From: Camelus dromedarius
Lineage: Eukaryota
Direction: 5' to 3'
DNA: 64,000 bases
Assembly: GCF_036321535.1 (NCBI RefSeq)
Contig: NC_087436.1
Coordinates: 60,824,001 to 60,888,000 of the forward strand
Below the pieces are notes generated by a model that saw only the letters and a list, made by a program, of their open reading frames with translations, did not search any database and was not told the origin of the DNA. This document shows positions 804 through 53,299 of this stretch, in pieces (position 1 is the first letter of the stretch; every line of letters starts with the position of its first letter). The translations under genes were made by a program, and so were the position numbers.

Positions 804-1476
804 TGTTATGGACTGAAGATTTGTGACCTGCCCCCTGCCCCAACGTGATAGCATTAAAAGTTAGGGCTTTGGACAAAATGTCAAAGAGTGGGAAATGGTC
901 AACTTCCTGGGAATCCTAACCCCTTCCCCAGGTAGCTAGACTGGTCATTCCACTTATTAGCATATAAAGCTACCAAGCTCATAAAAACTGGCAACATGGC
1001 TCTTCACAGCCACCTCTTGCTCCCTCCTCTTCGGAGACTGCCTGCACTCTGTCTATGGAGTGTGTATCTACTTGAACCTGAGCACCCATCCGCCATCCCT
1101 CGTGGACTTTCTCTTGCCTTCTGAAACAGCCTACACTCTATGCAGTATGTATCTCTCTAAATAAATCTGCCTTTACTCAGAAAAAAAAAAAAAAAGGGCT
1201 TTGGGAAGTTAATTAGGCATGAAGGTAGAGCCCTCATAGATGGGATTAGTACCTTTAGAAGAGACTCAGGCTAGCTCTCCTGATCTCTTGCTTCTGTGTG
1301 AGGAGACAAGAAGTCAGCTGTCTGCAGCCTGCAATAGGGCTCTCACCAGAACCCGACTATGCCGGCACTCTGATGTCAGATTAACAGCTTCCAGAACTCT
1401 GAGAAATAAATTCCTGTGGTTTATAGGCCACCCAATTCATGGTACTTTGTTACAGCAGCCAAAACTGACTAAAACG
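804..1476 (+). mobile_element. MaLR (MLT1/MST-like) solo LTR, itself interrupted at 873-1194
   Basis: Starts tgttatggactgaa; has ccagaactctgagaaataaattcctgtggtttata and ends cagcagccaaaactgactaaaac, as MaLR LTRs do. Confidence 0.8.
873..1194 (+). mobile_element. Poly(A)-tailed retrocopy of an ERV LTR U3-R segment (copy A)
   Basis: Matches about 28851-29134 of the solo LTR; AATAAA 1160-1165; A-run from 1181; TSD agggctttgg at 863-872 and 1195-1204. Confidence 0.85.
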
Positions 1477-2725
1477 GTAGGATTGCCTTTTTAATTATTG
1501 AAATGTAAAAGTTCTTTATACATTCTGGATACCAGTACCTTAGCAGATACATGATTTGCTAATATTTTCTCTCACTCTGTGGTTTGCTTTTCACTTTCTC
1601 GATTGTTTCCTTTAAAGCACAATTTTTTTTTTAATTTTCACAAAGTCCATTTATTTTTTTCCTTTTTGATCACTTGTGCTTTTGGTGTTATATCTAAGAC
1701 ACCATTGCCTAAGTCAAGGTCACAAAGATCTATTCTTATGTTTACTTCTTAGAGTTCTATAGTTTCAGCACTATGATGCATTTTTAATTAGTTTTTGTAT
1801 GCAGTGTGACGGAGGGGTTCAACATCATTCTTTTGCATGTGGATATCCAGTTGTCTCATTTCTTAAAAAGAATATTCTTTCCACTCATGAATTGTCTTGG
1901 CACACTGGTTGAAAAGCAACTGACCAGAAATGTAAGGGTTTATTTCTGTACTCTCAATTCTATTCCATTAATTTAGGGTTGAGTTTATAATAATTCTGCT
2001 AGTACCTGACCCCACAATGCTTATTTTCTAACCAAACTATTATAAAATTAAATTCAGTCCTCAAAATCAGGAGAAGTCACTTTTCCTCTGTTTTTGGTAC
2101 TAGGGCCCAGAAAGAGTATGGAAAAGTCTGATTCAAAGAGGTTCATTGTTCCTGTTTTTACTTATATCCACCTTCTTTCAATTCCTTGGGAAAATCTAAG
2201 CCATCTGAAGCCAAATTGCCTTACCCAACGTACAAATTAGTTATAATTTTTGTTCCTTGTCTCTTTCCCCTTCCCTTCTCCCTTCCCTTCCTTCTCCATC
2301 TCTTTCTCCTTCTTCTTCCCCCTTGTTCACACGATTTCTTCATAAACTCAATTAGAAAAAAGGTCTGTATTTAAAAATTGGTTATTTGATATTGTGGGCA
2401 AATTCAATTTATAATTTGTAAAGAAAATGAAATTGTGTAGAAAGAGCATCTTTAAATGTTTGTAATTTCAACTTAAATCTAACAAATAGGGGATACGTAT
2501 TTGTATACTTCTGATCAGAACATACACAAGTTGGTCAATGTCACTGCATAACTGCCCTGGTTGCTGAGGTACAAATGTGTTTCTTTTAGGTTTGAGATTG
2601 TTGTTTGTGGTGGTGTTATTGGCAGTGTTGTTGTGGTAGTGGTGGTGGTGGAAAATAGCTCTTTATTTGGTCTCCTTTATTACATGCAGATCCCAAACTG
2701 TTCAGTGACAGACTTGATAACTCAC

Positions 2726-2803
2726 ATTCCCTGCTGACAGTTACTTGGTAAGTATTAGCTTTTGCAAATGTATCTGTATTGTATTCACTTCCTTTGGTGT
2801 CAG
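2726..2803 (-). pseudogene. Candidate 78-nt phase 1-1 exon, (A)DTKGSEYNTDTFAKANTYQVTVSRE
   Basis: Acceptor ctcccttctcttt...tatatag|, donor aat|gtgagt; open in phase 1; no homology evidence. Confidence 0.35.
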
Positions 2804-4028
2804 CTATATACCAATATTATAAAGAGAAGGGAGAAAAGCAAGATTTTCTGTGACATTTAAATTTTAAATCTAACATAATTAAAAGAGAGCTCAAAAAGCC
2901 TGAATATTTATTATTATTGTGATTATTGTTATAATGACAATCAACAAAGAATATTTAATGCCCCATTATCATTCTTTAAATTCTTCTAATAGATTCCAAA
3001 GCTCCTTAAAAACTTTATGAATTAATTCATTAGCCTAACAAATATTTAATGAGGTTCTATGTAGTTGGTATTATGTTAAGTATACAAGGATCATGATAAA
3101 AGAAATAGCTGATACTCTGGTAGATAAGAAAAATTGATACTTTAAAAAGCATAATATAAGTGATGTGGATTATTTAAAGGGTACAATAAGAATGAAGGGG
3201 ATTAAAGTAGAATTGTGGCTGGAGCAAGTGAAAGATATCAGGGATCACTTTATAGAGAAAGTAAAATAATATAGAAACTTTAGAATTTCTTTCACTTCCC
3301 TCTAAATAGCATGCCTGTAGGTCAAAGGAGCTCTTCCCATTCACTCCAACATTCCTCCCTCCTCTCTCTTACTCTCCCACCCTCTCCCACCACCTCATCC
3401 ACCCTTTCTCCTCTCTCCAGATTCCTTATTTGCCAGAAGGCAAGTTGCAGTGGGGAAGGAGAGTAAGAGGGGGCAGGGAATGGATCAAGCTGGCGGAGGA
3501 TTTGTAGTGATGGTGGTATTTCTATGTTGATATGAACATCATCATCTTTAAGTCATTATAATTTTAGCATCATAGTACTTCATTGAAGACACTGACAATT
3601 TTTTAAATTGTGCCATACAAACTGAAAAAAACCCATGGTCCGGATTTTTGTGTCTGTCTGAAGCTTCCCATATCAATGGAAATTTTGAAAACATTATTTA
3701 GTCTTTAATAAAAAGTGGACAAAAACATGTGAATTAAGATTCAAATTACGGGATTTTTTTAAATTGCTGAAAACATGGTAACTGCTAAATTATAATTTTG
3801 ACCCATAAGTTTAGATAATGAATAAATCTAAAATGAAACTAGATTAATTGATTCATATTTTAAGCAAATGTGAAACAAAGAAATCAAATGTATAGCTATA
3901 AAACTTCAGAGATGCTGAAGTATTGCTGAACATACAAAATAAGAAATTATTTTTACACATAATGTGGACAGCTGGAGAATGATTCATTGCCATTAGATTT
4001 TTCTATCTAATGAAAAGTGAAAGCTTGC

Positions 4029-4094
4029 CTCTTGTCCTAAGATAGAAAGTTGATAATATTCCCTCTGAATATTCTGTATATTTTCCTTTATATA
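4029..4094 (-). pseudogene. Candidate 66-nt exon, (V)YKGKYTEYSEGILSTFYLRTR, with a GC donor
   Basis: Acceptor ttactcgtttttcag|, donor gag|gcaagc; open in phases 1 and 0. Confidence 0.3.
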
Positions 4095-4703
4095 CTGAAA
4101 AACGAGTAAATCCCTACACAATAATTTGTTTATGCTGTCATATGCTTTTAGAGCACAGGATTTGGAACTGGCAACACTGAGTGAATGGAGTAAGGTATTG
4201 TACCATACTTGCCAGTAAATGCTAAAAAGACACTTTTACACCACAGAGGTTATTTCTATATACATTGATCTTAAAAACTAGTTGGACCTTTTTAAGAGTT
4301 ATGTGGGGCGGGGGCAGATTGTAATAAAAAAGAAAGACAAATGCTTGTACTGATTGGCCAGATTATAATTTAAAAAAGAGAAAGAAATGCTTATATTGAA
4401 AACAATGTATTAGATAAGTTAATTGTCCAAAGGATTATTTATCCAAAAAATCATTTAATATAATTTTTACACATAGGTGTATACACATTGCCAAACATTT
4501 TAAATTTTATCTAAAACCTTATTTTCTTTGCCAAGGTTTCTTGCTCAGATCTGTGAAGAACAATCCCTTTCTTTGCTAAATAGCTCATTCTTTACAATAA
4601 TGAACACGGCACCCTCACAAATTATATTTGCAAAGTGTTTTCAAGCAAAATTAAAGTGTCATAACTATGTCACTAAATCTGAAAATCCCATGTAAAGGAA
4701 TAC

Positions 4704-4751
4704 CGGAGCTGCATGTTAACAATGCATGTGGACCTCCTTGAGGTTGATTTT
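4704..4751 (-). pseudogene. Candidate 48-nt phase 1-1 exon, (E)NQPQGGPHALLTCSS
   Basis: Acceptor ttgatgctcccatttcag|, weak donor ccg|gtattc; open frame. Confidence 0.3.
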
Positions 4752-5019
4752 CTGAAATGGGAGCATCAAGGAATCAAGAGGGACTCCTGTGCTCTTGATC
4801 CTTGTCTCTCACCTCTCCAGGGGCCTTGCCCCATCAATTAATTGCACTTTATCTTCTGCATTCTGCCCTTCAACCCACAAAAACACTCAAGTCTTTCCTA
4901 TCTTAAAAATTCCCATTCTCTCAAATTCTTTTAGACAAATTTTCCCATATTTCTACCAAATGTTTTGGAAAATACAAGGCATTTTCCTTTTTTTCTCATA
5001 ATCCATTTAGACAGAGATT

Positions 5020-5410
5020 GTTGGGTGCCTGTCAAGAATCCACGCTCCGTTCTTTGTCTCTAACTGAAGCCTGATCAGCATGACCAGCTAAAATATTTTA
5101 TTTCCCAGTCTTTCTGGCAGCTGAGTGTGAGTGTTCAGTGGGTTCTAAGCAGAAGTTAGGTTGACCTCAAAAAAAGTTTCAACAGGGAGTTTTAACGTAT
5201 TCCCTCTTGTCATTAGTTCTTTCTCCTCCCTCCTGTCTAGAACACACGTCTGGTGTCTGGAGCCCCAGAAACCCTCTGGGACAATGAAAAAAATCTTTAG
5301 ATTGGGAGCCATGGCCAAACACAGTAGAGCAGGAAGATAAAAGAGCCTACAAACCAGGTAACTATGGAGTCCCCTACCAGCTCTGGGATGCTTCTTCCTG
5401 ACTTCTTTCA
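5020..5410. mobile_element. Old MaLR (MLT1-like) LTR fragment
   Basis: tttcccagtctttctggcagctgagtgtg...agcaggaagataaaagagcct resembles MLT1. Confidence 0.5.
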
Positions 5411-6829
5411 AAAAAAAAAAAAAAAAAAGAAACACTTTACTTTTTGTTTCATTTCACTATCACTTTTTAAATTACCAGTCCTCTCCTTTAAACTACTCTT
5501 TATCTTCTTTTACTTATCGATGTGTTGTTGAATGCATATATTTAAACACTCACATATGTAGTAAACTGTGTATTTAGATACACAGTTTTAGTTTTAATAT
5601 ATAAATAATATTTTAACATAAAATAGTTTAGTCCATATACTACACTGATTTTAATTAGTTGATATTTTATATGTATGCATATATATGCAAGAATATAATT
5701 GAAAATGATTTCTATGAAGCAGCTTAGGAATTTTTTTAGACAGAAAAAAATTACTAAGTATGTTCAAGGTCTCAAAATCAAATAGAAATCATAGAAATTA
5801 ATCTCAATTTGATCTTAAAGAAGAATGGAATCACTGAGATATTTAAAATTCATCAGACTAATAAGATATTTTAAACTGTTACTCATATGTAAATGATTAT
5901 TTTTAAGCCAAACTTGATCTTAGTTGACAAACTTGTGCAACACTCAACCTCTGAATTTTTTTTCTCATTCTTTTCCTCTAAGGAAGCTTATCTCTTAAAG
6001 GTCATTAGTTAACCCAAGTTATTGAATCTAATATTTAAATGCTAATTGAAAAGCCTCATGTCATTCATCTTCTACCTTTACCACATGTACCAAAATCTCT
6101 TTACAACTCTGTTCTTCTTTATATTTCTTCATTGTTCACCCTTGGATTTTCTCCTATTTCTCAGATCCATCTCTCTTTTTCATTGACTCTTCTTTTCTAG
6201 CTCCCTACTAAACATTAGCTCCCTTATATTTCATGCTCAGTTATTTCTTCTTACTGTATACCTTATACAATGCCAAAACTTTCTCTTATTAGAATGATAG
6301 GCTAACCAAAATTTAGATCTCAAAACTGATATTTCCTTTGACCTCCAAACTCATGTTTCAGAGCACCTGCTGTCCTGCTATCTTATAAACAATTTAAATG
6401 AGTGTAAAATTTACTATCATTCTATTGAAGTCAGTCACCCTTCAGACTCTGCTCTGCCCAATGACTGAGACAGAAACACCAGAAACAGTACTATAAGATC
6501 CTCACACAAGAAGGGAGAAGACAAACACATAGTTCGTATGAGCAAGGGCTTTTCCTGCTGTAAGTAAGAAAATTCCAAATCTACTCAGTTTAAGCAGATA
6601 AAGGAACATACTGACTTATATATTTCTTTCATAAACTACCTGTTGACATGGTTCGATCTAGTTGTTTAACCCTTGTCTTCAAGAATATTTTCCTCTCCTC
6701 TTCCTGTGTCACTTGGTTTTGTTTCCAACTTTGCTGACTTATTTCTCAATCATATTCATCCCAGTGGCAGCAAAGATAGGCAACAAAATCTAAAAGCTTA
6801 TATTATACAAAGTTTAAGAATAGCAGTTT

Positions 6830-7960
6830 GCATAGCTTTGGGGAGCTTATCTTCCAGTTCACTAATCCTTTCTTCTGCTCAGTCCACTTTAATAAAAGCC
6901 CAACTATTGAGTTCTTAATTCTAGTTATTATGATTTTCTATTTGAGAATTTCTGTTTGATTCCTTTTTGATTCTGGTTCTTTGGTAAAACTCTCCATTGT
7001 GTTACCTATTTTCTCAAGCATATAAATAATAGTTATTTAAAATCTGTATCTGACAACTCCAGTGTATGGATCATCTTTAGCTATATTTCTCTTGTCTTTC
7101 TTCTTGTTCGCATTGGCTAGGATTTCCAGTATGATGTTGAAAGAGAGTGATGGGGGACACCTTTGTTTTTTTCCTCATCTTAGTGGGAATGTTTCTAGTT
7201 TTGCATCATTAAGTATGATGTTAGATGCAGGTTTTTATAGATGACTTTTATTAATTTGAGGAAGATCCTCTCTACTCTGAGTTTGATGAGAATTTGTAAA
7301 ATAAATGTTGGATTTTGTCAGATGCCTTTTCTGCATCTTTTGATATGATCATGTGATTTTTCTTCTTTAACTTTTTGATGTGATTAATTGATTTTCAAAT
7401 GCTAAAATACCTTGCATTTCTGGAATAAATGACACTTGGTCATGGTATATAATTCCTTTCATACATTGTTGGATGATTCAATTTGTTAGTATTTTGTTAA
7501 AGATTTTGCATCTGTGTTTATGAGAATATTAATCTCTAGTTTTCTTTTCTAGTAATGTCTTTGCCTGGTTTTCAAATTAGAATAATGCTGACCTCCTAGA
7601 ATGAGTTTGAAAGCATTCCCTCTGCTTCTGTATTCTGGAAGAGAATAAAGAGAATTGGTATAAAGTCTTCCTTAAATGTTTGGTAGAATTCAATAGTGAA
7701 CTCATCTAGACCTAGCATTTTCTTTCTTGGAAGATTATTCATTATTGATTCAATTTTAAAATAGGCATAGGAGCCTATTCAGATTGTCTGTTTCTTCTTG
7801 TGTGAGTTTTGGCAGATTGTTTTTCATTCAATTGGTCCATTTAACCTAGGTTATCAAATTTGTGGTCGTTGAGTTGTTCACTGTATTCCTTCTTAGTCCT
7901 TTTAATGTCTATGGGATCTGTAGTGATATCCCATCTTTCAATTCTGACATTAGTAATTTG
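6830..7960 (-). mobile_element. Old L1 ORF2 fragments
   Basis: ttggctaggatttccagtatgatgttga, cttaaatgtttggtagaattca and similar antisense L1 ORF2 text. Confidence 0.8.
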
Positions 7961-8099
7961 TGGCTCCCCACAAATTTCTGAAACCTACTCTTCACTTGGC
8001 CTTTAAACACCAATCTCTGGGCTGTCCTTTGGTCTCATAGGCCAGCCTAATGCTTAGCTGGATCACCCTTATCTTGCTGACCTCTAAAATTTGGAGTGC

Positions 8100-9560
8100 C
8101 TTGTGGGTCCTCTGACCTCCTCTCTTCAAACTACACTTACTCCCAAAGTAACATCTTTTAGTCTCAGTCTTTAAATACCATGTATTTTCATATGACTTCA
8201 AAATGCATAATCTTTGGCCCTGAACTTTTTGATAAACTCAAGATTTTTGTATCTGACTCTCTACTAGATAGCTCTAATTGATTACCTAATAGTTCTCTCA
8301 AACTCAACATATTCTAAATGAAATTCTTTATTTAATTAGCAGCAGCAGTCCCTTGCCTGCAAAAAAGCTTCTCCTAATTTCCCACCTTGTGGTATTCTCT
8401 ACTCCCTATTTTTTATACTTAGGCCAAAACAACTCTATTCCCTAATTTTATAGTTGCTTAGATTAAACATTAGAATAATTCTTCATACTTCTCTTCCTCC
8501 CACTTTATATTAGCAAATCCTGTTGGCTTTCTCTTCTAGATAAATAAATCCAGATCCCAGGTACTCATCAGCACCTCTATTACACTTAATGCAGTCACAA
8601 TCATTACTCATCAGGACTACTACAAAAAGCACCGTGCCACTACTCTTTCCCGCTCTGTTCTAACATAGCAACTAGAGTCATCATCCAAGATACCAACCAG
8701 ACCATGTTACTATTCTGCTTAAACCATCTAAAGCTATCACAGTTTACTCAGAAGAACAGCCAAGATCTTTACTGTAGTCTTTGTACCACACCCTGGCCAA
8801 ACCCCTAACTCAATCCCTCTGTAGCCTGGTCTCCCAGTATTGACTCATTCACTCACTCAACTATAGCTTTTCATCTTTTTTCAGATCAAAAGCCAAAATT
8901 CTCACCATGGTCTCCACATTCTCTGAGTTTGCTTTCTGGTGCTTTTCCTGCTTGGTCCCCTTACTTGGTGCTTGCCCTATTGGCCTTCTTGTTCCATCCT
9001 ACATCAAGGCTCTTGTATCAGCTCCTCCCTCTGCCTGGACTGCTCTTTCCCCAGATAGCTACAAGTGCAAGTCTTATTTCCAGTCCCTTCAGGTCTCTGC
9101 TTAAAGAAAACTTGATCAGGAAGTCCTTTTTTTTATTATCCCATGCAGAATAACAGTCCTATTCTCACTTTGTATATTTCTCTATAGTGATTAATACCAG
9201 AAGAACATGTTTTTATTTATTTCCTGTGCTTTCCTTATAGGTCTGAGAGGTCAGGAAAAGTTCTTCTGAAAAAGTGGTACTTCAGCTAAGACATGAGTAG
9301 GAGAAGACCACCAAAAAAATGGAAAGAAGCACATTCAGGCAAAGGGTTAGAAAGTATAAGGGCCTGGACCTAGAAAAGGCAGACTCAGGAAATATCTGAA
9401 TGTGAAATTACCATGTTAGTCATGCTAAGGACTTTGCATTTTATCTCAAGCACAGTGAAAGAGTTAAGGAGTAGATTATATGATTAGAATTTCACTTTGA
9501 TAAGATGATTTTAGCTAGTTTTTAAGAAGAGGTGGATTCAATGGAAGCCAAAGAGGTGTA
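8100..9560. mobile_element. Degenerate L2 fragments
   Basis: tctcaaactcaacat, gcaaatcctgttggct, ccctctgcctggactgctctttcccc are L2-like. Confidence 0.55.
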
Positions 9561-10682
9561 GGAAAGCCAGCGAACGACTCTGGCAATGGCAGATGTTGGT
9601 GTGTCATGGGAAGACTCCTGAGATTCATCTTCTATAGTATTAACCATGAATCTCTTGCAACCTCTGGGTCCAAATGTCTCCTACTTATTTTGAGATACTC
9701 ATGTTTTTCCTTGGTTTGATATTAACCATGTATAATACCTTAAAATGCAGAGTTAACTTTTACATGAGCATATGAATTTTCTTTCATCTTTAAGTATGCA
9801 AACAAAGACTATCTATACCTGGCTTAATTTTTTATTTTTTTTTTTATTTATTTTTTTTTTTTTTTAGTCAGCTGAGGTTTGGGATGTAGGGAGTAAATAG
9901 GGAATTTGTCCCAGCATCCCCTCCTGTTGCAAAAAGAATCCAGTATAAACAGACATGAAAAATATAGCATAGATTTTATATTGTATTCATTTTGCTGTGA
10001 ATATATTCATGCCTGCAATCCACAAAAGAAACAATTTTCTCTTACAGGATAATGATGTTCATGAGATGGAGTTCTAATAGGATATTTCTGTGGTCAAAAG
10101 AAATTTGTATATGTTCCCATTCTTTTTTTTTTTAACAAATGTGACAAAATACCCTATGTCCTTGATAATCCCAACTCTTATGCTTTTAACTGGCAGCTCT
10201 TTCTGTAGCATGTACAGGTTCTATTTGCTGCTTTCAGCTTCAGAGGTACCTTTTTCAGCCATCTGAGTTCGACCTTAGTCTGTCATTTTTAAAACCATAA
10301 AATAGCCAGAGAACATCTGCTAGGGACTGGTTCATAATAACTGAGCCAGTAACTGCCTCAACTAGCACATGATTCCATATGGATAGTTGGCATATGATCT
10401 TAAGTCAAGGGTGTTCTGTTTCAGCAAGAAATTAATTGAATGTTACCTTATCCCTAGTCTATTTTTACATGTTAAAATTATAACTACACATAAATTCCTC
10501 TTAGACATAATAGTTAAGGATGAAAAATTCTGTGAAGTACAGTATTTTGGTTTAGTGAGTCTGTGTGCATGTGTGTGTGTATTTAAATTTCTTTACCATG
10601 TATAGATAGTCTTTGATTTCATACTTAAAATCTATAGTCATGGAACAGTTACCCATGAACTTAAACTCAATGTATGTGTTAC

Positions 10683-10751
10683 CTGTCTGTGAAGAGTTAG
10701 AATACAACATAATTGACCCATCTACCACAACTGCAGTGACCAGAGTTTAAC
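10683..10751 (-). pseudogene. Candidate 69-nt phase 1-1 exon with an in-frame stop, G*TLVTAVVVDGSIMLYSNSSQT
   Basis: Acceptor tatattttttaaaag|, donor cag|gtaaca; TAA as second codon, otherwise open. Confidence 0.35.
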
Positions 10752-10874
10752 CTTTTAAAAAATATATAAATTAAATAATATATTTTAAAATAATGCTGAC
10801 TGTTATCCCAAGGAAGATGAAGAAGGTACCCACTTCCTCAACAGCCCATCCAGAGCTATTCACTCAACAATTAC

Positions 10875-10924
10875 CTGCTTTGTTATAATGGCTTTCAGGT
10901 AAAATTTCACTTAAAGAATGCGTT
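10875..10924 (-). pseudogene. Candidate 50-nt exon, THSLSEILPESHYNKA
   Basis: Acceptor atctgcag|, donor cag|gtaatt; separated from the next candidate exon by a 123-nt GT-AG intron. Confidence 0.35.
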
Positions 10925-15539: not shown

Positions 15540-16146
15540 TGATAGATGTGGAGGCCTCACATTTCCTGTTTTCAAACTGTATTGCAAGGACATAGTAATC
15601 AAAACAGTATGGTACTGGCATAAAAGCATATACATAGACCAGTGGAATAGAATCAAGAGCCCAGAAATAAATCCACTCATATACAATCAACTCATCTTTG
15701 ACAAAGTTGCCAAGAACACACAATGGGGGAAGGATAGTCTCTTTAATAAATAGTGTTGGGAAAACTGGATATACACATGCAAAAGAATGAAACTGGACCC
15801 TTGTCTTACACCATTCACAAAAATTAACTCAAAATAGATTAAAGACTTAAATATTATATCTGAACCATAAAAATTCCAGAAGGAAACATAGAAAAAGCTT
15901 CATGACATTAGCCTTGGTGATTTTTTTTTTTTTTGGAAATGTTCCAAAAGCAGGGCAACAAAAGCAAAAATAAACAAATGGAACTATATGAAACTAAAAA
16001 GCTTCTTCGCAGCAAAGGAAACAATCAACCAATGAAAAGGCAACCTATGGAATGGGAGAAAATATTTGCAGTTCATAACTGATAAGGGGTTAATAGCCAA
16101 AGCATATAAGGAACTCATACAACTCAATAGCAAAATAAAACAAAAC

Positions 16147-16194
<48 letters not shown>

Positions 16195-17204: not shown

Positions 17205-17908
17205 AAACAAAGAAAATGACAAACGTAACACATGATTGCATGCTCAATGCAGAGAACTTCAGACAAACACAATGGAAGAAAAACAATAAACTACCTACTA
17301 AAAAAAATTCAGAGATAATCACCCCTTCTTTTGGTGTATGACTGTACCTTTAAGAGATATTCTTATTATATGTGCCTAAGTATTGCTTGAAAATCATTCT
17401 TACTTGCTTCCAGATTACTGCTTATATTCCTGTTGAATTCAAAACTTACTGTTATTTAACTATACAGTGATGACAGATAACTAAATCCTGGGCAAGTCAT
17501 AATCAATAGAGAATGCCAACACTGTATATAGTGCGTTAAAATAGCCTAGAGATAATCATGACATTATTAATGATGTTATTGTCAAATACAGTGGCATTGA
17601 ATTGAAACATAAACAGGATTCAGACTCAAACAAGATATCCCAAAGAACTGAGCTGCTTTGAATTCTGCTCACTTGGGCTTTTAATATGCTAAGATGAATT
17701 AGACAAGTTTCTACATCTATACTCCCATAGCCGATAATTCCTTACTCTCTCACACTACTCCTCACCAGCTGCTTATAATTCCCATGAATAATTCTAATCT
17801 TAAAAGGATTTATTTTCTTTCATCTACCTAAAACACTGTATGTTGTTGATAAAAAGTACTGTAATGTAAAAGCTGAAGTATGTCTAAGAAATCATCTAAA
17901 TTAATTTC

Positions 17909-17948
17909 CTGTTTCATAAGCTGGGGGTCTTTTTGCAGTTAAATTAAC
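17909..17948 (-). CDS. Candidate exon 3 of the CpG-island gene, VNLTAKRPPAYET(G); donor reads GA, and read-through gives GN-stop at 17904-17902
   Basis: Strong acceptor ctttgtcaccttctccag|G; phase 0 matches exon 2; acag|gaaatt is one base from acag|gtaatt. Confidence 0.4.
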
Positions 17949-18254
17949 CTGGAGAAGGTGACAAAGATTTTATTTCATCGTGTTTAACTTGAGAATACTG
18001 AGGGTAGAGGCGCACCCCATGTCATGTGTGTATGAGACAGGGTGTCCCTCCACCCCCAGGCCCGGATGGAGATGAAGTGCAGCCTTATCATGTGTCTATG
18101 AGAATGGGTGCCCATCCAGACACAGGCTTGGGGTTGGAGGCCAAGTGCCCCCATACCATGTGTCTATTAAAGGGGCGCACATCCATATACAGGCCTGGGT
18201 ATGGATGTGTACCCGTATTGTAGGTTTCTTTTATGGGTGCACCTAAACACACAG

Positions 18255-18257
<3 letters not shown>

Positions 18258-18293
<36 letters not shown>

Positions 18294-18570
18294 ATATAAC
18301 ATGTATGTTATATAATATGTATGTGTGTGTATATATACATATAATATGTATATTATATATCTGTATATCCATACACATGTCAGTGTATGGATATATATCT
18401 ATTATATATAATGTATACATGTCTGTGTATTATGTAAATATATAATGTAAATATATAATATATGTGTGTATGCACACATGTATTATAACATATATACATG
18501 TATAAAATATAATGCATGCATATATTATATATTATATATACATATATAATATGATATATCTACATATAAA
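18258..18570. repeat. (TG)n followed by a long degenerate (TA)/(TATG) microsatellite
   Basis: Direct reading. Confidence 0.95.
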
Positions 18571-18651
18571 ACAGGTAGATTATAGACATGTACATAGAAC
18601 TCCAGACCTGTCAAACTTAGACTTCAGCTCATATTGGGGACCAATCATCTT

Positions 18652-18814
18652 TTTTGTTTGTTTGTTTCAGTATAGATAGAGTTATTTAGAGATCCATCAA
18701 GAGGCAAAAGAAAGGCCACGAGGTGTGGGGTTGTGTGCTCAGAGTAGAGTAAAAGTAGGTACACACTTCATAGATAGAATGTGGGCCATCTCTGAAGGGG
18801 GGCGGGTGGCAGCC
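18652..18814 (-). mobile_element. A-tailed retrocopy of the LTR R region (copy E), nested in the ERV
   Basis: Reverse complement matches about 28981-29134; tail aaacaaacaaacaaaaaa; TSD accaatcatctt 18640-18651 / acaaaccatctt 18815-18826 (10/12). Confidence 0.8.
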
Positions 18815-21357
18815 ACAAACCATCTTAAAGGATAAATTTCTCACCCAATCTGCCCCCAGTAGTAGATAAAAACTCCAAAAGGCAATCCAGGAACCCAGAG
18901 TAACTTGATAAATGTGAACCATTGCTGCCACAGGTTTTTTTTTTAAATTGCGATCAGGTACAAGAGGCCAAGGCTCAGGAGAAGGAAAGAAGGAAAGAGG
19001 CCAGGCCTGCCCAAGTGATTATAGCCCTTCAAGGGCAGCCACAACCCCTAAATCCTCGGCCCCCAGCAGCCTGAGACAAGCCTGATGAAAAATACAACAT
19101 CTGCCGCTGACCTGGTCAATGGGCCAAGAAATGTCCCCATAAGGACAAATGTTCAAGATCTGCCTGTTTTTGGTGTAAAAAGCAAGGTCATTGGGTAGCC
19201 CTCTGTCCCTCGAGCCAAATGGCCTGTGGGGGATAAGTGGCCTGCGACCTGCAAATGGTTGTCTGAGACTGAAGAAACCCCCTCCAGTCAGCCCCAGCAC
19301 AAGAGATCTTCATCACTGGGCTGGAGCCATGGATGCAAATGGATGTGGCAGGTAGGACAATCACATTTTTTTGGATACCGGGACCACCGACTCTGTCCCA
19401 CCTTCCTTCTCTGGACCCTTCTCCTCTAGATTCTATACCATCATGGGAGTCACAGGTCAGCCGGCCTTAAGATTCTTTACTCATCCCCTTTGTTGTTTAT
19501 GGGATGAACGCTCATTCGCACATTCTTTCTTATGCTTGCCAGAATGCCCTAGCCCCCATTAAGGCCAAGATCTTCTTTACAAGTTGGGAACCCGAGTTAT
19601 CCTGGGAGAAAATCCCCAAACTTCCACCTTTTTACAACTCTTACTGCTCTCTGGGGAAGGAGAAAGACCTCCGGACCCAGAGGCCTGGGAGAATAAAATT
19701 AATCCTGTTGTCTTGGATCAAGATATCCCAGGGCGAGCAAAGACGGCTGCTCCGGATGTCATCTCCCTCAAAGATCCTACCTGGTTCCCTAATCGAAAAC
19801 AATATATGACTTACTTACCTCTCCCTTACTCGAAAACAGGCCATCCAACATGGAATCCAAACTCTTAACTCTTGGCCGAGCAGGGGTATCTAGTTTCCAA
19901 GTCCAAGGCCAAAATGGACAAACAAGAGGTAACTTACCTAGGAGTTGTTCTGACTCCTGGAAACCACAGCATTTCCCCTGAATGAATTGAGGGAATCTTA
20001 CAACTCCCTAATCCCACTACTAGAAAACAGCTCAAGGCATTTCTCGGACTAACAGTTTACCATAGGCTCTGGTCTCTAGTTATGAGTCTAGAGCCCAACT
20101 TCTATATGACAACTTAAAGGGTAAGGATGACTCAGTACCTCTCCAGTGGCATCCTTCCCAACAGGAAGCAGTGGAAGAACGAAAAAATCTCCTAGTAAGA
20201 TCCCTGGCCTCGGGGCTTCCAGATCCCACAAGGCCCTTCCAGTTCTATGTTCATGAGAGAGGAGGAATAGCGTTGGGGGTCCTCACCCAATGGCTGGGTC
20301 CTACCCATCAGCCTACGGGATACCTCTCCAAGTGGCTAGACCCCACTGCTTGAGGCTGGCCTTCCTGCCTAAGAGTGTTAGGAGCCCTCTCCACTCTCCT
20401 GGAGGAAGCTTTTAAGCTAACTCTGGGGGCCCCTATACAAGCATATGCTAACCATCAAGTTTCTGACCTTTTAAAAGGCAGGAGACATTTCTGGCTCTCA
20501 GATGCTTGGCTTCTTAAATATCAGGCATTATTACTGGAAAACCCAGACGTCACTGTCTTTTTTTGTGGGACACTCAATCATGCTACACTATTACCATCAC
20601 CTGACAAGTCTCTTCCCTTTCACGTATGTCATGAGACCCTATCCATTTCTCTAGGAGCTAGAACAGGTCTCAGCGACCAACCCCTGGAAAACCCTGGTGA
20701 GATCTGGTTCACCAATGGGAGCCATATATTCTTGTGAACCTCTTAGCAATCTGCGACTGCTTTCCAAGCAACACTCCAGTGAGACTCTTCCATCGCCCTA
20801 GGAGACTATGGATCCCTGTTAGATAAATCCCTTTCTTAAATGTCTCCTGGTTCAAATCGTTTCTCTTTTAGGGCCCCCAGCAAACTGTTTTAATACTAAT
20901 TTAAAATGTCTCTGACATTAGGGTCCTGCTTTTTACTCCTCCTTTAGTTCACTGGACTAACACTGCAACATCTGCTTTCTAAAACCTAAACCAACAGAAA
21001 GCACAGAAATCAATGGTTTATAAGAAGAACCTTGTTTGCCCCTTTCGTCCTTTGGCTAGGATTAGCTCTATATATTTGAACTCTATCTTTTCATCCTTCT
21101 TATGAAAAGTGTTTCTTCTCCTCTAGAGATAAACTTCAAATGATGATATAACAAGGTAATCAACAAATCAGCCAAGACCACTTATATACAAGCCCCTCAG
21201 TGAACACCAACCCTTTGCCCACATCCTGACCAAGGACAGTCAGCTAGTCTGGTACCCCAACGAGCTCCATCACTGCCCCAGATCAGTAGGAAGTAGCTAG
21301 AGTGGTCCTCGCTCTCTACATCCCCAAGATTCGGGGCCCTATGACTAGAGGGGGGAA

Positions 21358-21477
21358 TGTAGGTAGTTTAGCTAGGAATCAGCACTGGGCAGGGGAAGAG
21401 GAAACTGAAAGGAACAACCCAGAACATAAGGAACCAGGGCTCTCAATCAACCAGAGCACAGAGAATCTGAGCTGTCA

Positions 21478-21512
<35 letters not shown>

Positions 21513-21826
21513 GCAAGGACTGGGGATGGAGTCGCACCCCGTGTCATGTCTCTGCGAGATGGGGTGCCCCTCCACCCCCAGAGCCTAAATCCATCTTCTT
21601 TTTTCCTGTCATTCTCTACAAATTTATTACTCTTTATTAAAGATGCTAGTAGCCAGAGTTCTAAGCCACCCCTTTGATTTACCCAACTCTGAATGCTCTC
21701 ATATATATGCACCAAGCACTTGTTAACAAACAGGTGTTGTTTTTCTCTTGTTAATTTGTTATTTGTTATTTGGGTCCTGGCTGAGAACTCAGTAGGATAG
21801 AGGAAAGATTTTTTTCCTCCCCTACA
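21358..21826 (+). mobile_element. 3' LTR of the ERV, with an internal (ATCA)n tract
   Basis: TG...CA termini (tgtagg...cctaca) directly after the PPT. Confidence 0.9.
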
Positions 21827-22066
21827 CTAGCTTGGTGATTTTGATGATGCATTATAAGTTGAATGGTAACACAGAGAAAATGTATTTGTGTTTACTTTGG
21901 AGGAAGAAAACAGAATGGGAAGGCCTCCTGGAAAAGATCTATACTGAATTGAATACTCAAAGTTACCTAACCCAGTGAAATCAAATCCCTATAGGTAAAA
22001 TAATATCTATCTGTCTATCGTACAAGGTCATTGTGAGAATTGAGAGACTGAATATAAAGTGGACAG

Positions 22067-22580
22067 TGCCAGATCAGATATTAAAACAGAACTCTGACCC
22101 ACAACCTGTAGTAACCCACCCAGAAAACCAACTCATTGTTTAGAATGACCAACCCGGGAAGCCAGCCTGCTATAAGTCAGACTTGGCAGAAGTCAGATGA
22201 CTATCTCAAGTGAAGTCCTGGAATCCACATAGTAACCTCCGTAACAATCAGCCCAAAATGGCCAGGACTTGATTAATAAGTGATAACTTCCCTAAATTTT
22301 GACCCTGCCTCCAACTTCCAACCAATCAGAGAAAACCAGATATGCACTCCTAACCAATCACATAGTGCCTGCATCTAGTTAAACAACCTACAGCTTCCCC
22401 ATGCCAACAGCCTCAGTCAGGGCACACCTGAAGTCTTCCCTTCTTCCCATTATAAAGCTTTCCCACTCATGTGCCTTTGAATCTCAGCCAAAATGCAGGT
22501 GGCCTGGCTGACTCACTTGTTCCATCTAGCTCTAACTAGCTTTTGCTTGTTCTCATTTGGTTGGTCTTCTTTACTTCCAC
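22067..22580 (+). mobile_element. Older ERV1-type solo LTR (MER34/MER39-like)
   Basis: Paired aaccaatca CCAAT boxes, tataaa, ends cttccaca. Confidence 0.65.
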
Positions 22581-22885
22581 AGAAATAATTTGACAATATA
22601 TATAAAATGTCTAGTACAAAGTGTAATTTTTAGGCCTAGGACTTTCTGAATCATTAAAGGAAATATTGAAGGAAACAAAGCCCTTAGGCCTTCAAGGCCT
22701 GACCTACTTTCAACCAAATTTACATTGTGATCTATATATCAAAAGGCCTGCCTGCAAATCTGGTTGCTAAAGAAGCACTCAGTAGTTTCAAAAGCAGCAG
22801 GTCAGACCTGAAAACCAGCATCCCAACCAAACTGTCATGGGCTTCACTGTATTAGCTGAGACAAAACAAGTGGTTTCCTACTTAC

Positions 22886-22929
22886 TGTTCTGTATTCTGA
22901 AGGTTCGCCAAAATGAGCATTCAGAGAGG
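22886..22929 (-). CDS. Candidate exon 2 (44 nt, phase 1 to 0), (A)SLNAHFGEPSEYRT
   Basis: Consensus acceptor tatttccttcttgcag| and donor aca|gtaagt; in frame with exon 1; non-repeat sequence. Confidence 0.55.
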
Positions 22930-23224
22930 CTGCAAGAAGGAAATAGTTTAAAGGATGTGATTAAGGTCAATTCTTGTTCATAAGGGATTTTTAAAATCTG
23001 GTTGGTGATTTATACAGGCCACATCTTCTCCCTTTCCCTCAGATGCCAAGCTTTTGAAGAACCCTTAAAAAGGGTATTCAGTTGTGTTCTGGTACCTATC
23101 CTAGCAGGCATACAGAAAACATTTGGTACTGGTTCCATGACTGACCACCCTAACAGGGTTACTTGGGGAAAGACTTTACAGCTGTGGAACAAAAGTCAGA
23201 GAAGTAACTCTTAACAATTCATGA

Positions 23225-23412
23225 GCCACCTCTCTCTTGCTTCCTCCTTTTAGGAGACCGCCCACACTCTGTCTATGGAGTGTGTACCTACTGTTACTTT
23301 AACCTGAGCACCCAACCCCCACACCTCGTGGCCTTTCTCTTGCCTTTTGAAACACCCTACACTCTATGCAATATGTATCTCTCTAAATAAATCTGTCTTT
23401 ACTCAAAAAAAC
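23225..23412 (+). mobile_element. A-tailed retrocopy of the LTR R region (copy B)
   Basis: Starts gccacctctc, ends aataaatctgtctttactc+A-run; degenerate TSD aacaattcatga 23213-23224 / aaaatttcacga 23413-23424 (9/12). Confidence 0.75.
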
Positions 23413-23637
23413 AAAATTTCACGATATTCTTTCCCTCTGCAGCTCAGGGTGATAAACGCAAAACTTAACATTAGGTGTTACCATTTTAACTCTATTTTAA
23501 AAGGCCGTCAAGTCTGGCTAGACTAAATCCCCTTTCTTATAAGCCCCAGACTGCACTTGGCAGTCACAGTTCCTGATTCCTTTAAATCTCCTACAGAGGT
23601 TTTGTAGGGCCCCTTGGTACATAAAAACCCAGCTCCT

Positions 23638-23804
23638 TGGGGAAGGGTATAGCTGAGTGGTAGAGTGTGTGCTTAGCATGCACAAGGTCCTGGGTTCAAT
23701 CCCCAGTACCTCCATTTAAATAAATAAATGAATGAATTAACGAATGAATGAATGAATAAATAAACCTAATCCCCTCCCCTTCCAAAAAAAAAAAAAAACT
23801 AAAA
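23638..23804 (+). mobile_element. vic-1-like camelid tRNA-derived SINE
   Basis: ggggaagggtatagctgagtggtagag...gggttcaatccccagtacctcc (A and B boxes), AT-rich tail, TSD ataaaaaccca(g/a)ctcct 23621-23637 / 23805-23821. Confidence 0.9.
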
Positions 23805-23929
23805 ATAAAAACCCAACTCCTGATTTTGGGCTCCAGAAAATCCACTTTAAGAGAGAAGGAGTAGCAAGCAAGGTGTCACTAAGAAGATGCTGGGAAGAAC
23901 TAAAGAGGGCTGCTGGCTCCACAAAGCCA

Positions 23930-24420
23930 TCCCTGCGCACTCTCAACTTCACGTCCCTTGAGGACCACAGGGCCGGCCCGGAACCGCCAATAACGGGTGC
24001 GGCCGAGGGACGCCAATGCCCGGATCCAGGGAGGGGCAGCTGCGCCAAGAACCCCTTTTGGTTACTCCTTGGCCGGTCCTAGGGCAACCAGCCAAATGGT
24101 GAGCATTACCTGCCGAGTCCCACCAGACCAGAAGCACCAGGACCAAAGGCAGTGCCGCGAGCCCCGTTCTCCCTCCGCGGATGGCCATCCGTCACTGAGT
24201 ACTTCGGCGCCCGCGCGACATGAAGGGCGCCCGCGGTTCGGACACGCAAAGGGTGGGGTGAGGGAAGGGCGGTAAGAGGAGGGAGGATGAGGGGAGGGGG
24301 GTGAGCCAGGCAGGTAGGAGGAGGGGGAGGGGCGGAATGGATGAGGGAGCGGGGCGGCAGAGGGAGGAAGGTAGAGGAGGGGTGGTTGCTAGCCCCCAGC
24401 TCCTCGCCCCGTGGAGGATG
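23930..24420 (-). promoter_or_regulatory. CpG island / probable promoter with GC boxes
   Basis: Only CpG-dense tract in the window; GGGGCGG at 24329-24335 and 24351-24357; G-rich run 24251-24385. Confidence 0.8.
24110..24188 (-). CDS. Candidate coding exon 1: signal-peptide-like MAIRGGRTGLAALPLVLVLLVWWDSA with a phase-1 donor
   Basis: ATG at 24188 with +4 G; basic n-region, hydrophobic h-region, small-residue c-region; donor cag|gtaatg; lies in the CpG island. Confidence 0.6.
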
Positions 24421-24539
24421 GGAGTAAGCGATTATGGGGACCATCTCTCCCTGCAGCGAACAAGAGCCTTGTAAGAGCCCTGGATGGCTCTGTCAGTCAA
24501 CCTCAGTTTCTGAGCTTCTGCTGCATCCCAGGAACTGTT

Positions 24540-25360
24540 TTGGGGCTGAACTCAGCAAAGGAGGTTCCTGCTCTCAAGAAGCTTTCTAGTGTAGGTGCTA
24601 GGGATGGGGTGACACAGGGGACTCCAAAACAAGTGAATACAATAACTTCTAAAATTAAGTGCTGGAGCGGGGGGCAGGGGAAGACTTACATTGGGAAGTC
24701 AGAAAAAGCCCTTCAGAGGTGACATTTGAGCTGAAAACTGAAGGATAAGAGGGAAGCCTGGTGGAGACCTTGGGAACAAGTATTCCAGGTTCACAGAAAA
24801 GCAAGGGCAGAGATTTGGAAGCAGGAGCCAGTTCACTGTGTTCAGCTGGAGCTCTAGGTGAAGGAGGGGGAAAGGTGAGGGTGATGTAGGTCGTGATAAG
24901 GGCTTTGGATTTGCTCTGGTTGCAGTGGGAAGCCAGTGGAGGATTTTAAGTAATGGACTGCCCCTGACCTGACTTACATTTTAAGACACTGGATGAAGAA
25001 TGGACAGGAGATAGGTAAGAGTGGAGGCAGGGAGACAAATTAGGTGGTTATTGCAGGAATCCAGGCAAGAGCAGATGGGGCCGTGAATTAGTGTATAGTA
25101 GGGGACTGGCAAGAAGTGGTCAGATTCAGGATTCATTTTGGAGGTGGAACCAACTGGAGTGAAGAGAAGAACCAAGGATGCTTCCTGAGATTCTGTCCTG
25201 AAGAGCTGGACGGGTGGTGATGCCATTTTTATGATGAAGAACATTTGGAAAGGAGGCACATTAGACATCCAAGTGGACGTGTGGAGAAGGCAGTTGGAAT
25301 TACAAATTTGGAGCTGGAGATATAAATGCAGAAGTCATCAGCATATCAAAGGTATTGAAA
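24540..25360. mobile_element. L2 fragment
   Basis: gaggtgacatttgagctgaaaactgaagga, gtgggaagccagtggaggattttaag, ttagacatccaagtgga. Confidence 0.75.
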
Positions 25361-25366
25361 ATCTTT

Positions 25367-25443
25367 GGGAGAGGATAAGCTCAAGTGGTAGAGCACATGC
25401 TTAGCATGCATGAGGTCCTAGGTTCAATTCCCAGTACCTCCTT

Positions 25444-25484
<41 letters not shown>

Positions 25485-25530
25485 ACCTAATTATCCCCAC
25501 CACCAAAAAGTCTATCAAAAAAAATAAAAA
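25367..25530 (+). mobile_element. vic-1-like SINE
   Basis: agctcaagtggtagagcacatgcttagcatgcatgaggtcctaggttcaattcccagtacctcc followed by (AAAT)n. Confidence 0.9.
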
Positions 25531-25699
25531 TGGGAAAGAAAAACCTTGGACCCTGACAGCAGAGGCCCAAGATTGGAGCCCATGTCATGCTACAAGCAAA
25601 CAAGAGATCTGACATACAAACCCCATTATTGGATATTAACCAATCCACACTTAATTATTGATACTAGGCTTTTAAAATACATCCATAAGCATAAAAAAG

Positions 25700-27240
25700 G
25701 AAGCATTTTTACACTAAAGTTAACTCAAAATGGAATGTGGACTTAAATGTAAAGAGTGAAACTTTAAAATTTTAGAGAAAAACATAGAAGAAAATCTTCA
25801 GAACCTAAGCATGGAGTTTTTAGACTTGACACTAAAGCATAATTCATAAAAAAACAGATTGATAAATTGGACTTCATCAAAATTAAGAACTTCTGCTCTG
25901 CAAAAGACCCTATAAAGAAGATGAAAATACAATCTACAGATGGAGAGCAAATTATTTCCAAACCACATATCCAACAAATGACTTGTATCTAGAATAAAGA
26001 GATCTCAAAACTCCAGGGGAAAAGAAGAAATAATCTGATTAGAAAATAGGCAAAAGCTATAAACAGACATTTCACTGGAGAGGATATGGAGAAGGCAAAT
26101 AAGCACACGAAAAGGGGTTCAACATCATTAGAAATTAGGGGAATGCAAATTAAAATTGCAATTAGTTATCATTACACATCTGTCAGAATGGCTAAAAGAA
26201 AAAATATTAGCCACATCAAATGATGGCTAGATCACTCATTGTCTGTGGGAAAGTAAAATGGTACAGCTACTCTGGAATATGGTTTGACAGTTTCTTGAAA
26301 AACTAAGCATGCAAGTGGCATATGATCCAGCTGTTGCACTCTTGGGCATTTACCCCACAGAAATGAAGGCTTACTTTCACACAAAAATCTGTATGTGAAT
26401 GTTTATAGCAGCTTTATTGTTAATAGCCCAAAACTGGAAACAATCTAAATACCCTTCATGAGGTGAATGGTTAAACAGGCTGTGGTACATTCATACCATG
26501 GAGTACTACTCTTAACAAAAGGAACTGGCAACTAATACAGACAACAATTTAGATGGATCTCAAGGGCTTTATGCTGAGTTTAACAAATCCAAACTCAAAA
26601 AGTTGCATACTATAAAATTTCATTTACATACAACAATTGAACAACTTGGGGGTTAGGGGCACTGACCTCCCATACAGTTGAAAATCAGAGTATAACTTTA
26701 CCGACCTCTGTGTCTGTGGTTCTGCATCCACAGATTCAACCAACCACAGATCGAGTAGTTCTGTAATACTTACTTGAAAAAATTTGTGTGTAAATGGACT
26801 AGTGTAGTTCAAACCCACATTATTAAAGGATCAACAATATATAACACTCTTAAAATGATGAAATATAAAGATGGTGAACAGATTAGTGGTTGCCAAGAGC
26901 TGAGATTGGAGGTAGGTGTGGGAAAGGTAGCTGTGGCTATTTCAAAAGTAGCATGAGAGATCCTCATGATTTAATTGTTCTGTATATTCACTGGGTCACG
27001 GGAATATAAAGATGTGCTACAGTTGCACAGAATCAAATATACACACATAAAAATGAGTATGGGTAAAACTGGTGAAAGCTGAATAAAGTTGGTGGATTAT
27101 ATCAGTGTCAATTTACTGATTTTGAAATTGTACCATAATTATGCAAGATGTTACCACTGGGGGAACCTGGGTAACAGAAACATGAGAACTCTCTGTATTA
27201 TTTTTTACAACTGCATACATATCTTTAATTATCTGTAATT
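25700..27240 (+). mobile_element. Old L1 (L1MC-like) ORF2 end and 3' UTR
   Basis: taactcaaaatgga, ggacttcatcaaaattaagaacttctgctctgcaaaagac, gatgttaccactgggggaacctggg. Confidence 0.85.
26625..26842. mobile_element. TcMar-Tigger-family MITE inserted in L1
   Basis: ttgaacaacttgggggttaggggc, tctgcatccacagattcaaccaacc, gttcaaaccc...aaggatcaac resemble MER8/Tigger-type elements. Confidence 0.65.
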
Positions 27241-27640
27241 ATAACTAATGCTATAAGTTATAAAGCATAAAAAGAAGTTAAGCTCTAAAAGTCATATGTA
27301 GAACCTGAATAGTAAAGAAACATCATCTCTAGTTAAATGAACCTGAATAATTAATATTGATCTAGCAAATTGTGGGCCTTAAGCCTGTGTTGAGGATATG
27401 TAATTTTATTATTTTCATAAGGAAGGGCAGTTTGTTAAACATAAAGTAATATGATTTAATGTTCAATGTGTCTTAATATTTAGTCTTTTCTAAGACTTTC
27501 AACTAAACAGATTCACAAATTCATATTAAAAAAAGAAAGCAATCTTTATCAAAGTGTGTACCCTGATTATTTTACAGAATATGATCACCACAAATAAAGT
27601 GATTGTATAACTTAGAAATAAGTAATGCTAAAATACCTTA

Positions 27641-28251
27641 GGCCACTGCCCTCTCTCTCTCCCTCTTCAGAGATGGCCCGCACTCTGTCTATTGAGTGTG
27701 TACCTACTTTTAATCTGAGCACCCAGCCCCCGCATCTCATGGCCTTTCACTGCCTTTCAATGCATCTCTCTGAATAAATCTAACTTCACTCAACTGTGGC
27801 TCGCTCTTGAATTCTTTCCTGCCTGAAGCCAAGGACCCAGATTTGGCTGGGCACATCCCAGGGGCTCAACCAAAGCCTGGGACACGGCCCTCCTCACACC
27901 CACATCTGTTTTCCCTGCATCATATCTTTGGCACCCAACGCGGGACATTTACATAAAGAAAAGGGCTCAAAGGGCATAATCTTGACCCACCTGTTGGGCT
28001 ACAGCTCCCCTCTATTCAGAGGGTGGCGGGGGTTTCTCCCGCACTGTGCAGATTCAAGTATCCCTTAGGTGGCGGCTGATGCTGCCTGCAGGATCTGGCA
28101 GAGACCAGCTCTCTAGCAGTGAAGGAGCCCACTGAGCCCAAGGCTTTTCTCCCCTCAATCTTTTCTCATTCTCTCCTCGCTCTATGTCTTTGGACTCGAG
28201 AAGATCCACCAAGGAGATCACTCAGACATCCAAACTAAGACCACGGGAAAA
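27641..28251 (+). mobile_element. Retrocopy of an ERV 5' transcript: R-U5, tRNA-Lys-like PBS and leader (copy C)
   Basis: No U3; LTR ends ctgcatca at 27922; PBS tggcacccaacgcgggac 27929-27946 (15/18 to the Lys-CUU PBS TGGCGCCCAACGTGGGGC); TSD aaaata(c/g)ctta 27630-27640 / 28252-28262. Confidence 0.8.
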
Positions 28252-28382
28252 AAAATAGCTTAATTTTTTTCCCCTGCTTTACACAGAGTATTGTGAATTT
28301 CTGTGTTCTGGGTGGTTTTGAATTTCCTTTGCTTCTGATTAGGTAGAAAATAGAGAAATATAATGGTCAAAACTGAGAATTT

Positions 28383-28530
28383 TCCCCCCATTAACTGGTA
28401 ACCTCTTCTCCCTTCAGTAGCAAAGACTGCTGCCATGTCCTGCCACACATAATGGGGTTGTGGCTCCAGGACCTTGCTTCAGGCATGTAAGATCCCCTTA
28501 CCCATTAAACCATTGATGCTGCTGGAAAAA
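28383..28530 (+). mobile_element. Short A-tailed retro-insert, probably the R region of a different LTR family (copy D)
   Basis: ATTAAA 28504-28509 then an A-run; TSD aaaa(c/t)tgagaattt 28369-28382 / 28531-28544 (13/14). Confidence 0.7.
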
Positions 28531-28635
28531 AAAATTGAGAATTTATTGAAAACATTTTTGCTAGCTCATTATATATTTGGTTCTCAGAATTTTTAAACTA
28601 ATCATTGGTAAATTTAAATTGTACATCTTTGGAAA

Positions 28636-29264
28636 TGAGACAGGATGGAAGGGGGCAGGGCACAGCCATTCAAGGAATGCCACAGCAATTAACATCAAAA
28701 TGGAAGGTTCAACCCCCAGTAGACCTTGAGGCTCAGGATGATGAGAGATTTAACTTCTAGCAGAATTTGAGCTTCATTATACGCCCATTGTAATATATTA
28801 ACATGGTGAATGACACGCCCACAGGCATCATGGCAGTCCCAAGGCCAGCCACAAAAGCTCAAAGAGTGGGAAATGGCCAACTTCCTAGGAATCTCAGCCC
28901 CTTCCCCTTAGACTGCTCCTTCCACTTATTAGCATATGAAGCCACCAAGCCCATAAAAATCAGCAACACGGCGCCTTGCAGCCGCCCCTCTCTCTCCCTC
29001 TTCGGAGAAGTAGATGGCCCACATTCTGTCTATGGAATGTGTACCTACTTTTAATCTGAGCACCCAACCCCCACACCTCGTGGCCTTTCTCTTGCCTTTC
29101 AATGTATCTCTCTCAATAAATCTACCTTCACTCAACTGTGGCTCACTCTTGAATTCTTTCCTGCACGAAGCCAAAGACCCACACTTGACGGGGCACATCC
29201 CAGGGGCTCAACCGAGACCTGGGACACGGCCCTTCTCATGTCCCACATCTGTTCTCCTGCATCA
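28636..29264 (+). mobile_element. Complete ERV1-class solo LTR (parent family of copies A, B, C, E)
   Basis: TG...CA termini, perfect 4-bp TSD gaaa, TATA-like cataaaaa 28952-28959, AATAAA 29115-29120. Confidence 0.92.
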
Positions 29265-39090: not shown

Positions 39091-39157
39091 ACTGATGTCA
39101 CTATGACAGTGACCAGAATGTGAGACAGTTACTGGGTGCTTGAGTTGAGCCCCCATT

Positions 39158-53227: not shown

Positions 53228-53299
53228 GTGTCACTTCTCCTCCAATAGGCCTATCCTGGCCCAGCCTGGATTAGGCCCATCTTTAATGGATATCATTGG

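Follow-up and report, generated by a model that had tools for sequence, protein, structure and literature searches.

Short A-tailed retrocopies of an ERV1-type LTR in a 64-kb camel window, with two R-only copies as candidate TINE-type retropseudogenes

The question raised by this stretch of Camelus dromedarius DNA (NC_087436.1, positions 60,824,001 to 60,888,000; 64 kb, the window) is how fragments of one endogenous retrovirus (ERV) long terminal repeat (LTR) came to carry A-rich tails. The window contains a solo ERV1-type LTR of 629 nt, LTR1 (28636..29264, plus strand). It ends in TG...CA and is flanked by a duplicated GAAA (4 bp), which together mark an ERV1-type element inserted by integrase. 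The first-pass annotation had matched four inserts to this LTR and read them as a family of A-tailed copies of its R region, similar to short interspersed elements (SINEs). We detected the same four matches: copy A (873..1194, plus strand, aligned to LTR1 28851-29134, 234/276 identical columns), copy B (23224..23412, plus strand, aligned to 28980-29135, 135/155 identical), copy E (18652..18814, minus strand, spanning about the same stretch as B, 125/148 identical) and copy C (27641..28251, plus strand, from the start of R to the LTR end, 253/283 identical). As had also been stated, none of the four has TG...CA ends with a target-site duplication (TSD) of 4-6 bp, which LTR1 has and a second full LTR of the window, LTR2, roughly has. 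The whole analysis concerns this single window, which is mammalian and ERV-rich (38% G+C, rich in repeats) and was picked because the pattern was seen there.

Two of the four LTR1-family copies, B and E, consist of R alone and measure 182 nt and 147 nt without their tails. The first-pass annotation had proposed R-only RNAs of about 160-190 nt for all four. Copy A, however, consists of U3 and R, and copy C of R, U5, a primer-binding site and leader. We consider it likely that B and E are retropseudogenes of the type known from tarsier TINEs, for which capped, tailed R RNAs of 150-180 nt would have been made in the germline and copied by the long interspersed element (LINE) L1. The copying by L1 of short LTR RNAs running from start site to poly(A) site accounts best for B and E, but it does not fit A or C.

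Common start and end points

LTR1 can be divided on the plus strand into U3 (28636-28979), R (28980-29134) and U5 (29135-29264), with putative borders placed from the ends of the copies and the spacing of the TATA box and poly(A) signal. The TATA-like CATAAAA (28952..28958, plus strand) lies 28 nt upstream of the predicted start site, and the poly(A) signal AATAAA (29115..29120, plus strand) would direct cleavage after the CA at 29134. The CATAAAA box is also present in LTR2 and in copy A, the latter with identical spacing (28 nt, 980 to 1008).

Copies B, C and E all begin at LTR1 28980 or 28981, 28 nt downstream of CATAAAA, in line with the common start near 28981 noted in the first pass; the two positions are equivalent because one base is common to the TSD. 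All three start just past the LTR TATA box, which is the 5' end of TINE-type elements. At the other end, A and B stop 14 nt past AATAAA and E stops 13 nt past a decayed AATAAC, which bears out the earlier description of copies ending just beyond the signal, and the three run on from the poly(A) site into A tails that are absent from the LTR. B and E, but not C, have the TINE-type 3' end of an LTR poly(A) site with an A tail. Copy C fixes the putative start site independently, because an RNA with R, U5, primer-binding site and leader only derives from a 5' LTR. The shared start is the strongest part of the finding.

B and E could instead be ordinary 5'-truncated processed ERV pseudogenes, which stop near the start site by chance or because L1 stalls at a pyrimidine tract. 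Copy A is one of these, and very short HERV-W processed copies are reported to be common in one dataset (PMC5016936). However, B and E start within 1 nt of the start of C and of the position 28 nt past the TATA box. Random truncation would place two of three poly(A)-anchored copies in a 3-nt start window with a probability of 2.7e-5 to 1.1e-3, depending on which of seven assumed truncation-length models is used, and we regard this origin as very unlikely. We considered a non-templated G from the cap as a further mark of the 5' ends and dropped it, because the G of B may belong to the decayed TSD and that of C and E may be a subtype variant.

The two other copies are consistent with longer templates. 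Copy A includes about 130 nt of U3, the TATA box and R, and reads as a 5'-truncated 3' end of the HERV-W type. In copy C, a primer-binding-site-like stretch (27929..27946, plus strand), presumably of the tRNA-Lys type, lies 6 nt past the LTR end and is followed by about 330 nt of leader up to an A8 run. None of 12 types of poly(A) hexamer was found in the 59 nt upstream of A8, suggesting that copy C was probably internally primed on a proviral 5' transcript.

In the proposed mechanism, RNA polymerase II (Pol II) would transcribe LTRs of this ERV1 family from the TATA-like box. Cleavage and polyadenylation would follow 150-180 nt further downstream, at the poly(A) site of the LTR itself, and L1 proteins would reverse-transcribe the resulting short R RNA, with its cap and tail, at nicks resembling TT/AAAA. 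Copy A would be a 5'-truncated copy of a longer RNA whose end was the 3' LTR, and copy C would stem from an RNA that read through the 5' LTR and was primed at a run of A within it. We infer the transcription, the start site, L1 as the enzyme and the germline expression from the sequence. The distance from cap to poly(A) site is lengthened by a partial tandem duplication inside R, which is evident in A, B and LTR2 and present in reduced form in LTR1, C and E; a long, internally duplicated R without a strong downstream splice donor may permit cap-proximal polyadenylation. Retroviruses must suppress the poly(A) site of the 5' LTR, in HIV-1 and foamy viruses through U1 at the major splice donor, and failed or incomplete suppression leads to short 5'-LTR-polyadenylated RNAs (PMC3694450). 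The best splice-donor match in the decayed leader of copy C is 5/9, and a solo LTR has no viral splice donor downstream. Among the 24 sequencing runs listed, part of 27400-29500 is present in 20 and at least half of its words in 14; the word share is 0.06-0.11 in five RNA runs and 0.28 in one run guessed to be RNA, values that are not evidence of expression.

Target sites and competing origins

With the junctions fixed, the best TSD of each copy was compared with 2000 random left flanks. The perfect 10-bp TSD of copy A, which follows an A15 tail, was equalled by 1/2000 flanks, that of copy C (10/11) by 15/2000 and that of copy E (8/9, or 10/12 if extended, after an (AAAC)n-type tail) by 40/2000; a tRNA-derived SINE of the window (23639-23805) with a TSD of 16/17, used as a control, was equalled by 0/2000. 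The A-rich tails and 10-12 bp TSDs of the first-pass annotation hold in this way for A, C and E, while copy B retains the tail but not a convincing duplication. The left junctions are TT/AACAA in B, CT/AAAAT in C, TT/AAGA in E and, given a TSD extended to 17 nt with 3 mismatches, TT/AAAAG in A. All four are of the pyrimidine/purine kind and near the L1 target, TT/AAAA (PMC5016936).

These marks bear on the possibility that the inserts are decayed solo LTR fragments beside chance A-rich sequence, with no RNA intermediate. The decayed TSD of copy B would suit such an origin, but three copies pass, at the poly(A) site, into tails that the LTR does not encode, and the TSDs of A, C and E are equalled by only 1, 15 and 40 of 2000 random flanks. 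We find this explanation scarcely credible.

A more serious competitor is collapse, in which a full-length R-U5-internal-U3-R-poly(A) RNA would be copied by L1 and the interior lost by R-R recombination, or the template would jump from the 3' R to the 5' R. Copies A and C prove that longer RNAs of the LTR1 family served as L1 templates, R is 150-180 nt long here vs about 90 nt in HERV-W, and HERV-W processed pseudogenes do have the R-U5...U3-R structure (PMC5016936). On the other hand, collapse requires full-length L1 copying of a multi-kilobase RNA plus a second event, a long processed copy is absent from the window, and the authors of the tarsier work interpret their elements as direct short transcripts (PMC5059674). 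Weighing these points, we judge collapse to be unlikely.

Several observations weigh against direct copying of short R RNAs as the origin of B and E. Only two R-only copies were seen in the window, and R-R collapse would give the same R-only product, so that one window cannot separate the two. Copy C indicates that the 5' poly(A) site was bypassed in at least one RNA. The TSD of B (7/9) is equalled by 294/2000 random flanks, which taken alone is chance level. A strict blind scan for tail plus TSD recovered A and an unrelated A-tailed insert, copy D, and missed B, C and E; a relaxed scan recovered A, D and E and again missed B. The truncation models behind the P values are our own assumptions, applied to a window selected for the pattern. 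The L1 marks are also stronger in A and C, which are not R-only, than in B and E.

Source LTRs and other elements of the window

A sensitive search of the window with two R regions detected six R matches, namely LTR1, LTR2 and copies A, B, C and E. LTR2 (50018..50665, minus strand) is a second full solo LTR of the LTR1 family with 468/602 identical columns (78%) to LTR1, and its flanks are ATTT/ATCT, its poly(A) signal is decayed and its R is of the long form; the first-pass annotation had described LTR1 correctly and overlooked this second LTR. Compared in pairs, the four copies are 80-90% alike over R, with B and E sharing 121/144 columns (84%). Two diagnostic indels distinguish them: an extra 23-27 nt, part of the internal duplication, is present in A, B and LTR2 but not in LTR1, C and E, and a 5-nt insertion is present in B, E and LTR2 but not in LTR1, A and C. 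The four copies have all four combinations of these indels, one each, and both indels vary between the full LTRs, suggesting several source LTRs and not the single source LTR assumed previously. In the proposed mechanism, copies without U3 would be dead on arrival and the sources would be several genomic LTRs of different subtypes.

The same data speak to the idea of a true SINE, in which R-only copies would be transcribed themselves and spread from a master retrocopy. Their size, tails and TSDs are SINE-like, and they agree with the SINEBase limits of less than 700 bp, non-autonomous and LINE-mobilised (147-611 nt, A tails, TSDs, with L1 as the putative enzyme; PMC3531059). But a simple pattern search found no A or B box of RNA polymerase III (Pol III) in 6/6 R regions, while in the tRNA-derived SINEs of the window the same search found a B box in 3/3 and an A box in 2/3. 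In addition, B and E are only 84% alike, and a diagnostic indel that sets them apart varies among the full LTRs as well. Without a Pol III box, and in B and E without a U3 promoter, the copies cannot act as sources, and a true SINE appears extremely improbable. By their sequence features they would be dead-end retropseudogenes and not SINEs under the SINEBase definition (PMC3531059), so the SINE-like family proposed at first survives only in the loose sense of size, tails and TSDs. The density also changes: the sensitive R search detected no retrocopy beyond 29.3 kb of the window, and the four copies claimed for 28 kb become four in 64 kb. On the whole, the first-pass observation is partly confirmed and its interpretation partly supported, the RNA-copy reading being largely right for B and E.

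Copy D (28383..28527, plus strand) is an A-tailed insert of 143 nt that is unrelated to LTR1. It has ATTAAA 16 nt ahead of A9 and a TSD of 13/14 that was equalled by 1/2000 random left flanks, and there was no other match to it within the window. We take it to resemble the 3' end of a different ERV LTR, and on that assumption it is possibly the same process acting on another LTR family.

Three tRNA-derived SINEs with A-rich tails are present at 23639-23805, 25369-25530 and 48720-48853 (minus strand), and an Rfam search of the window gave only tRNA matches, three in number, all of them heads of these SINEs. Other LTR-like elements were also observed. An older one at 39150-39760 (minus strand) is a distant U3 relative of LTR1 (E 1e-4), and a pair at 52634-53240 and 62897-63500 (minus strand) is 86% identical, 10 kb apart and in the same orientation; a control search found no short copies of the elements at 39.1-39.8, 52.6-53.2 and 62.9-63.5 kb in the window. 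Copy A is inserted into an older LTR, presumably MaLR-like, and this flank has further matches at 38.6-38.7 and 60.2-60.3 kb. The region 18900-21830 (plus strand), just downstream of copy E, is presumably the decayed interior of an ERV, with pieces resembling gag/pol, a polypurine tract near 21350 and, from about 21358, an LTR. It contains a stop-free stretch at 20354-20737, and the 21.4-kb LTR has further matches at 18.0-18.1 kb. The segment 24000-24400 is rich in G+C and CpG and resembles a promoter or first exon.

The camelid copies beside known retroposons

The literature searched contained no camelid case of TINE-type copies, with Repbase, Dfam and most subscription papers outside its scope. 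The parts consulted of three camelid papers (PMC8605555, without its supplements, PMC6675863 and PMC6726744) do not mention such copies, and Repbase includes alpaca LTR entries, for example LTR2_Vpa (PMC6726744). Motif searches gave 0 matches in paper text and 0 in viral contigs; scans of metagenome contigs gave 0 and then 2 matches, both rejected as chance matches in microbial-looking DNA. The novelty suggested by the first-pass annotation is much reduced by the tarsier TINEs, which share the mechanism, and is retained for camelids within that literature. By analogy, the camelid instance would represent a second mammal group for a mechanism already known from tarsiers, and it is probably independent of the tarsier elements.

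Two R-only copies per 64 kb correspond by naive extrapolation to 7,600-226,000 per 2 Gb (95% interval, from a selected ERV-rich window), compared with about 0.55 per 64 kb for tarsier TINE1/2 in an assumed 3.4-Gb genome. With two R-only copies, a selected window and no retrocopy past 29.3 kb, the abundance figure is only suggestive. As a tentative hypothesis, about which our doubts exceed our confidence, camelids might contain an undescribed TINE-like family with tens of thousands of R-only copies, formed over a long period from several subfamilies of a single ERV1 LTR group, to which copy D may add another LTR family; such copies would be annotated as LTR fragments and would be independent of tarsier TINEs. 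If true, Pol II R-only retroposition would be a recurrent mammalian route to SINE-like repeats, to be expected where R is long and the downstream splice donor weak, and with TINE-type elements in a second mammalian lineage the tarsier case would no longer stand alone. The copies would be fossil cDNAs, from which the start and poly(A) sites of an extinct ERV LTR could be read to the base, along with the subfamilies that were expressed in the germline. They would inflate camelid LTR counts and could be presence/absence markers for camelid phylogeny; no host function is suggested.

The three tRNA-derived SINEs of the window resemble what we take to be camelid vic-1. Like the LTR retrocopies, elements of this kind are short, A-tailed, TSD-flanked passengers of L1, but they have a tRNA head with Pol III boxes and the LTR retrocopies have none. 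SINEBase lists vic-1 as a simple SINE of camels (PMC3531059).

HERV-W processed pseudogenes have an R-U5 5' end, a U3-R 3' end, poly(A), a TT/AAAA target and a TSD of 5-15 bp, and HERV-W is according to a review the only human ERV group so mobilised (PMC5016936, PMC5537654). They are a precedent for copy A, as a truncated form with U3-R, poly(A) and a TSD of that size, and for the R-U5 start of copy C. However, none of the four copies has the full structure (5' R-U5, internal genes and 3' U3-R in one element), and most HERV-W copies are long and collinear with genomic RNA, whereas B and E are R alone. Internal priming is known for L1, and tailless, internally primed retropseudogenes are described mainly for small RNAs and mRNAs (PMC5322556). 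Copy C is like these in that its 5' end is complete while its 3' end is cut off at a short run of A, which may be templated, with no poly(A) signal.

The closest system is that of the tarsier TINEs, Pol II transcripts from the LTR TATA box to the LTR poly(A) signal that were mobilised by L1, with 29,041 copies of TINE1/2 (26,938 full length) and 1,668 of TINE3 (PMC5059674). Their parents are LTR77_TS and a MER83B-like LTR, and they have been termed SINE-like or retropseudogenes (PMC5059674, PMC5322556). A reviewer comment explains TINE1 by polyadenylation at a solitary LTR and states that this occurs in other primates too (PMC3183009). B and E would have followed the same route, from an LTR TATA-to-poly(A) Pol II transcript through L1 to short A-tailed copies. 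The distance from TATA box to signal is about 80 nt in tarsier TINEs (PMC5322556) vs about 160 nt in LTR1. The lineage is different and the LTR presumably so, the camelid host pointing to an independent origin. Unlike the tarsier TINEs, the copies described here represent several source subtypes and stand alongside U3-R and R-U5-leader copies.

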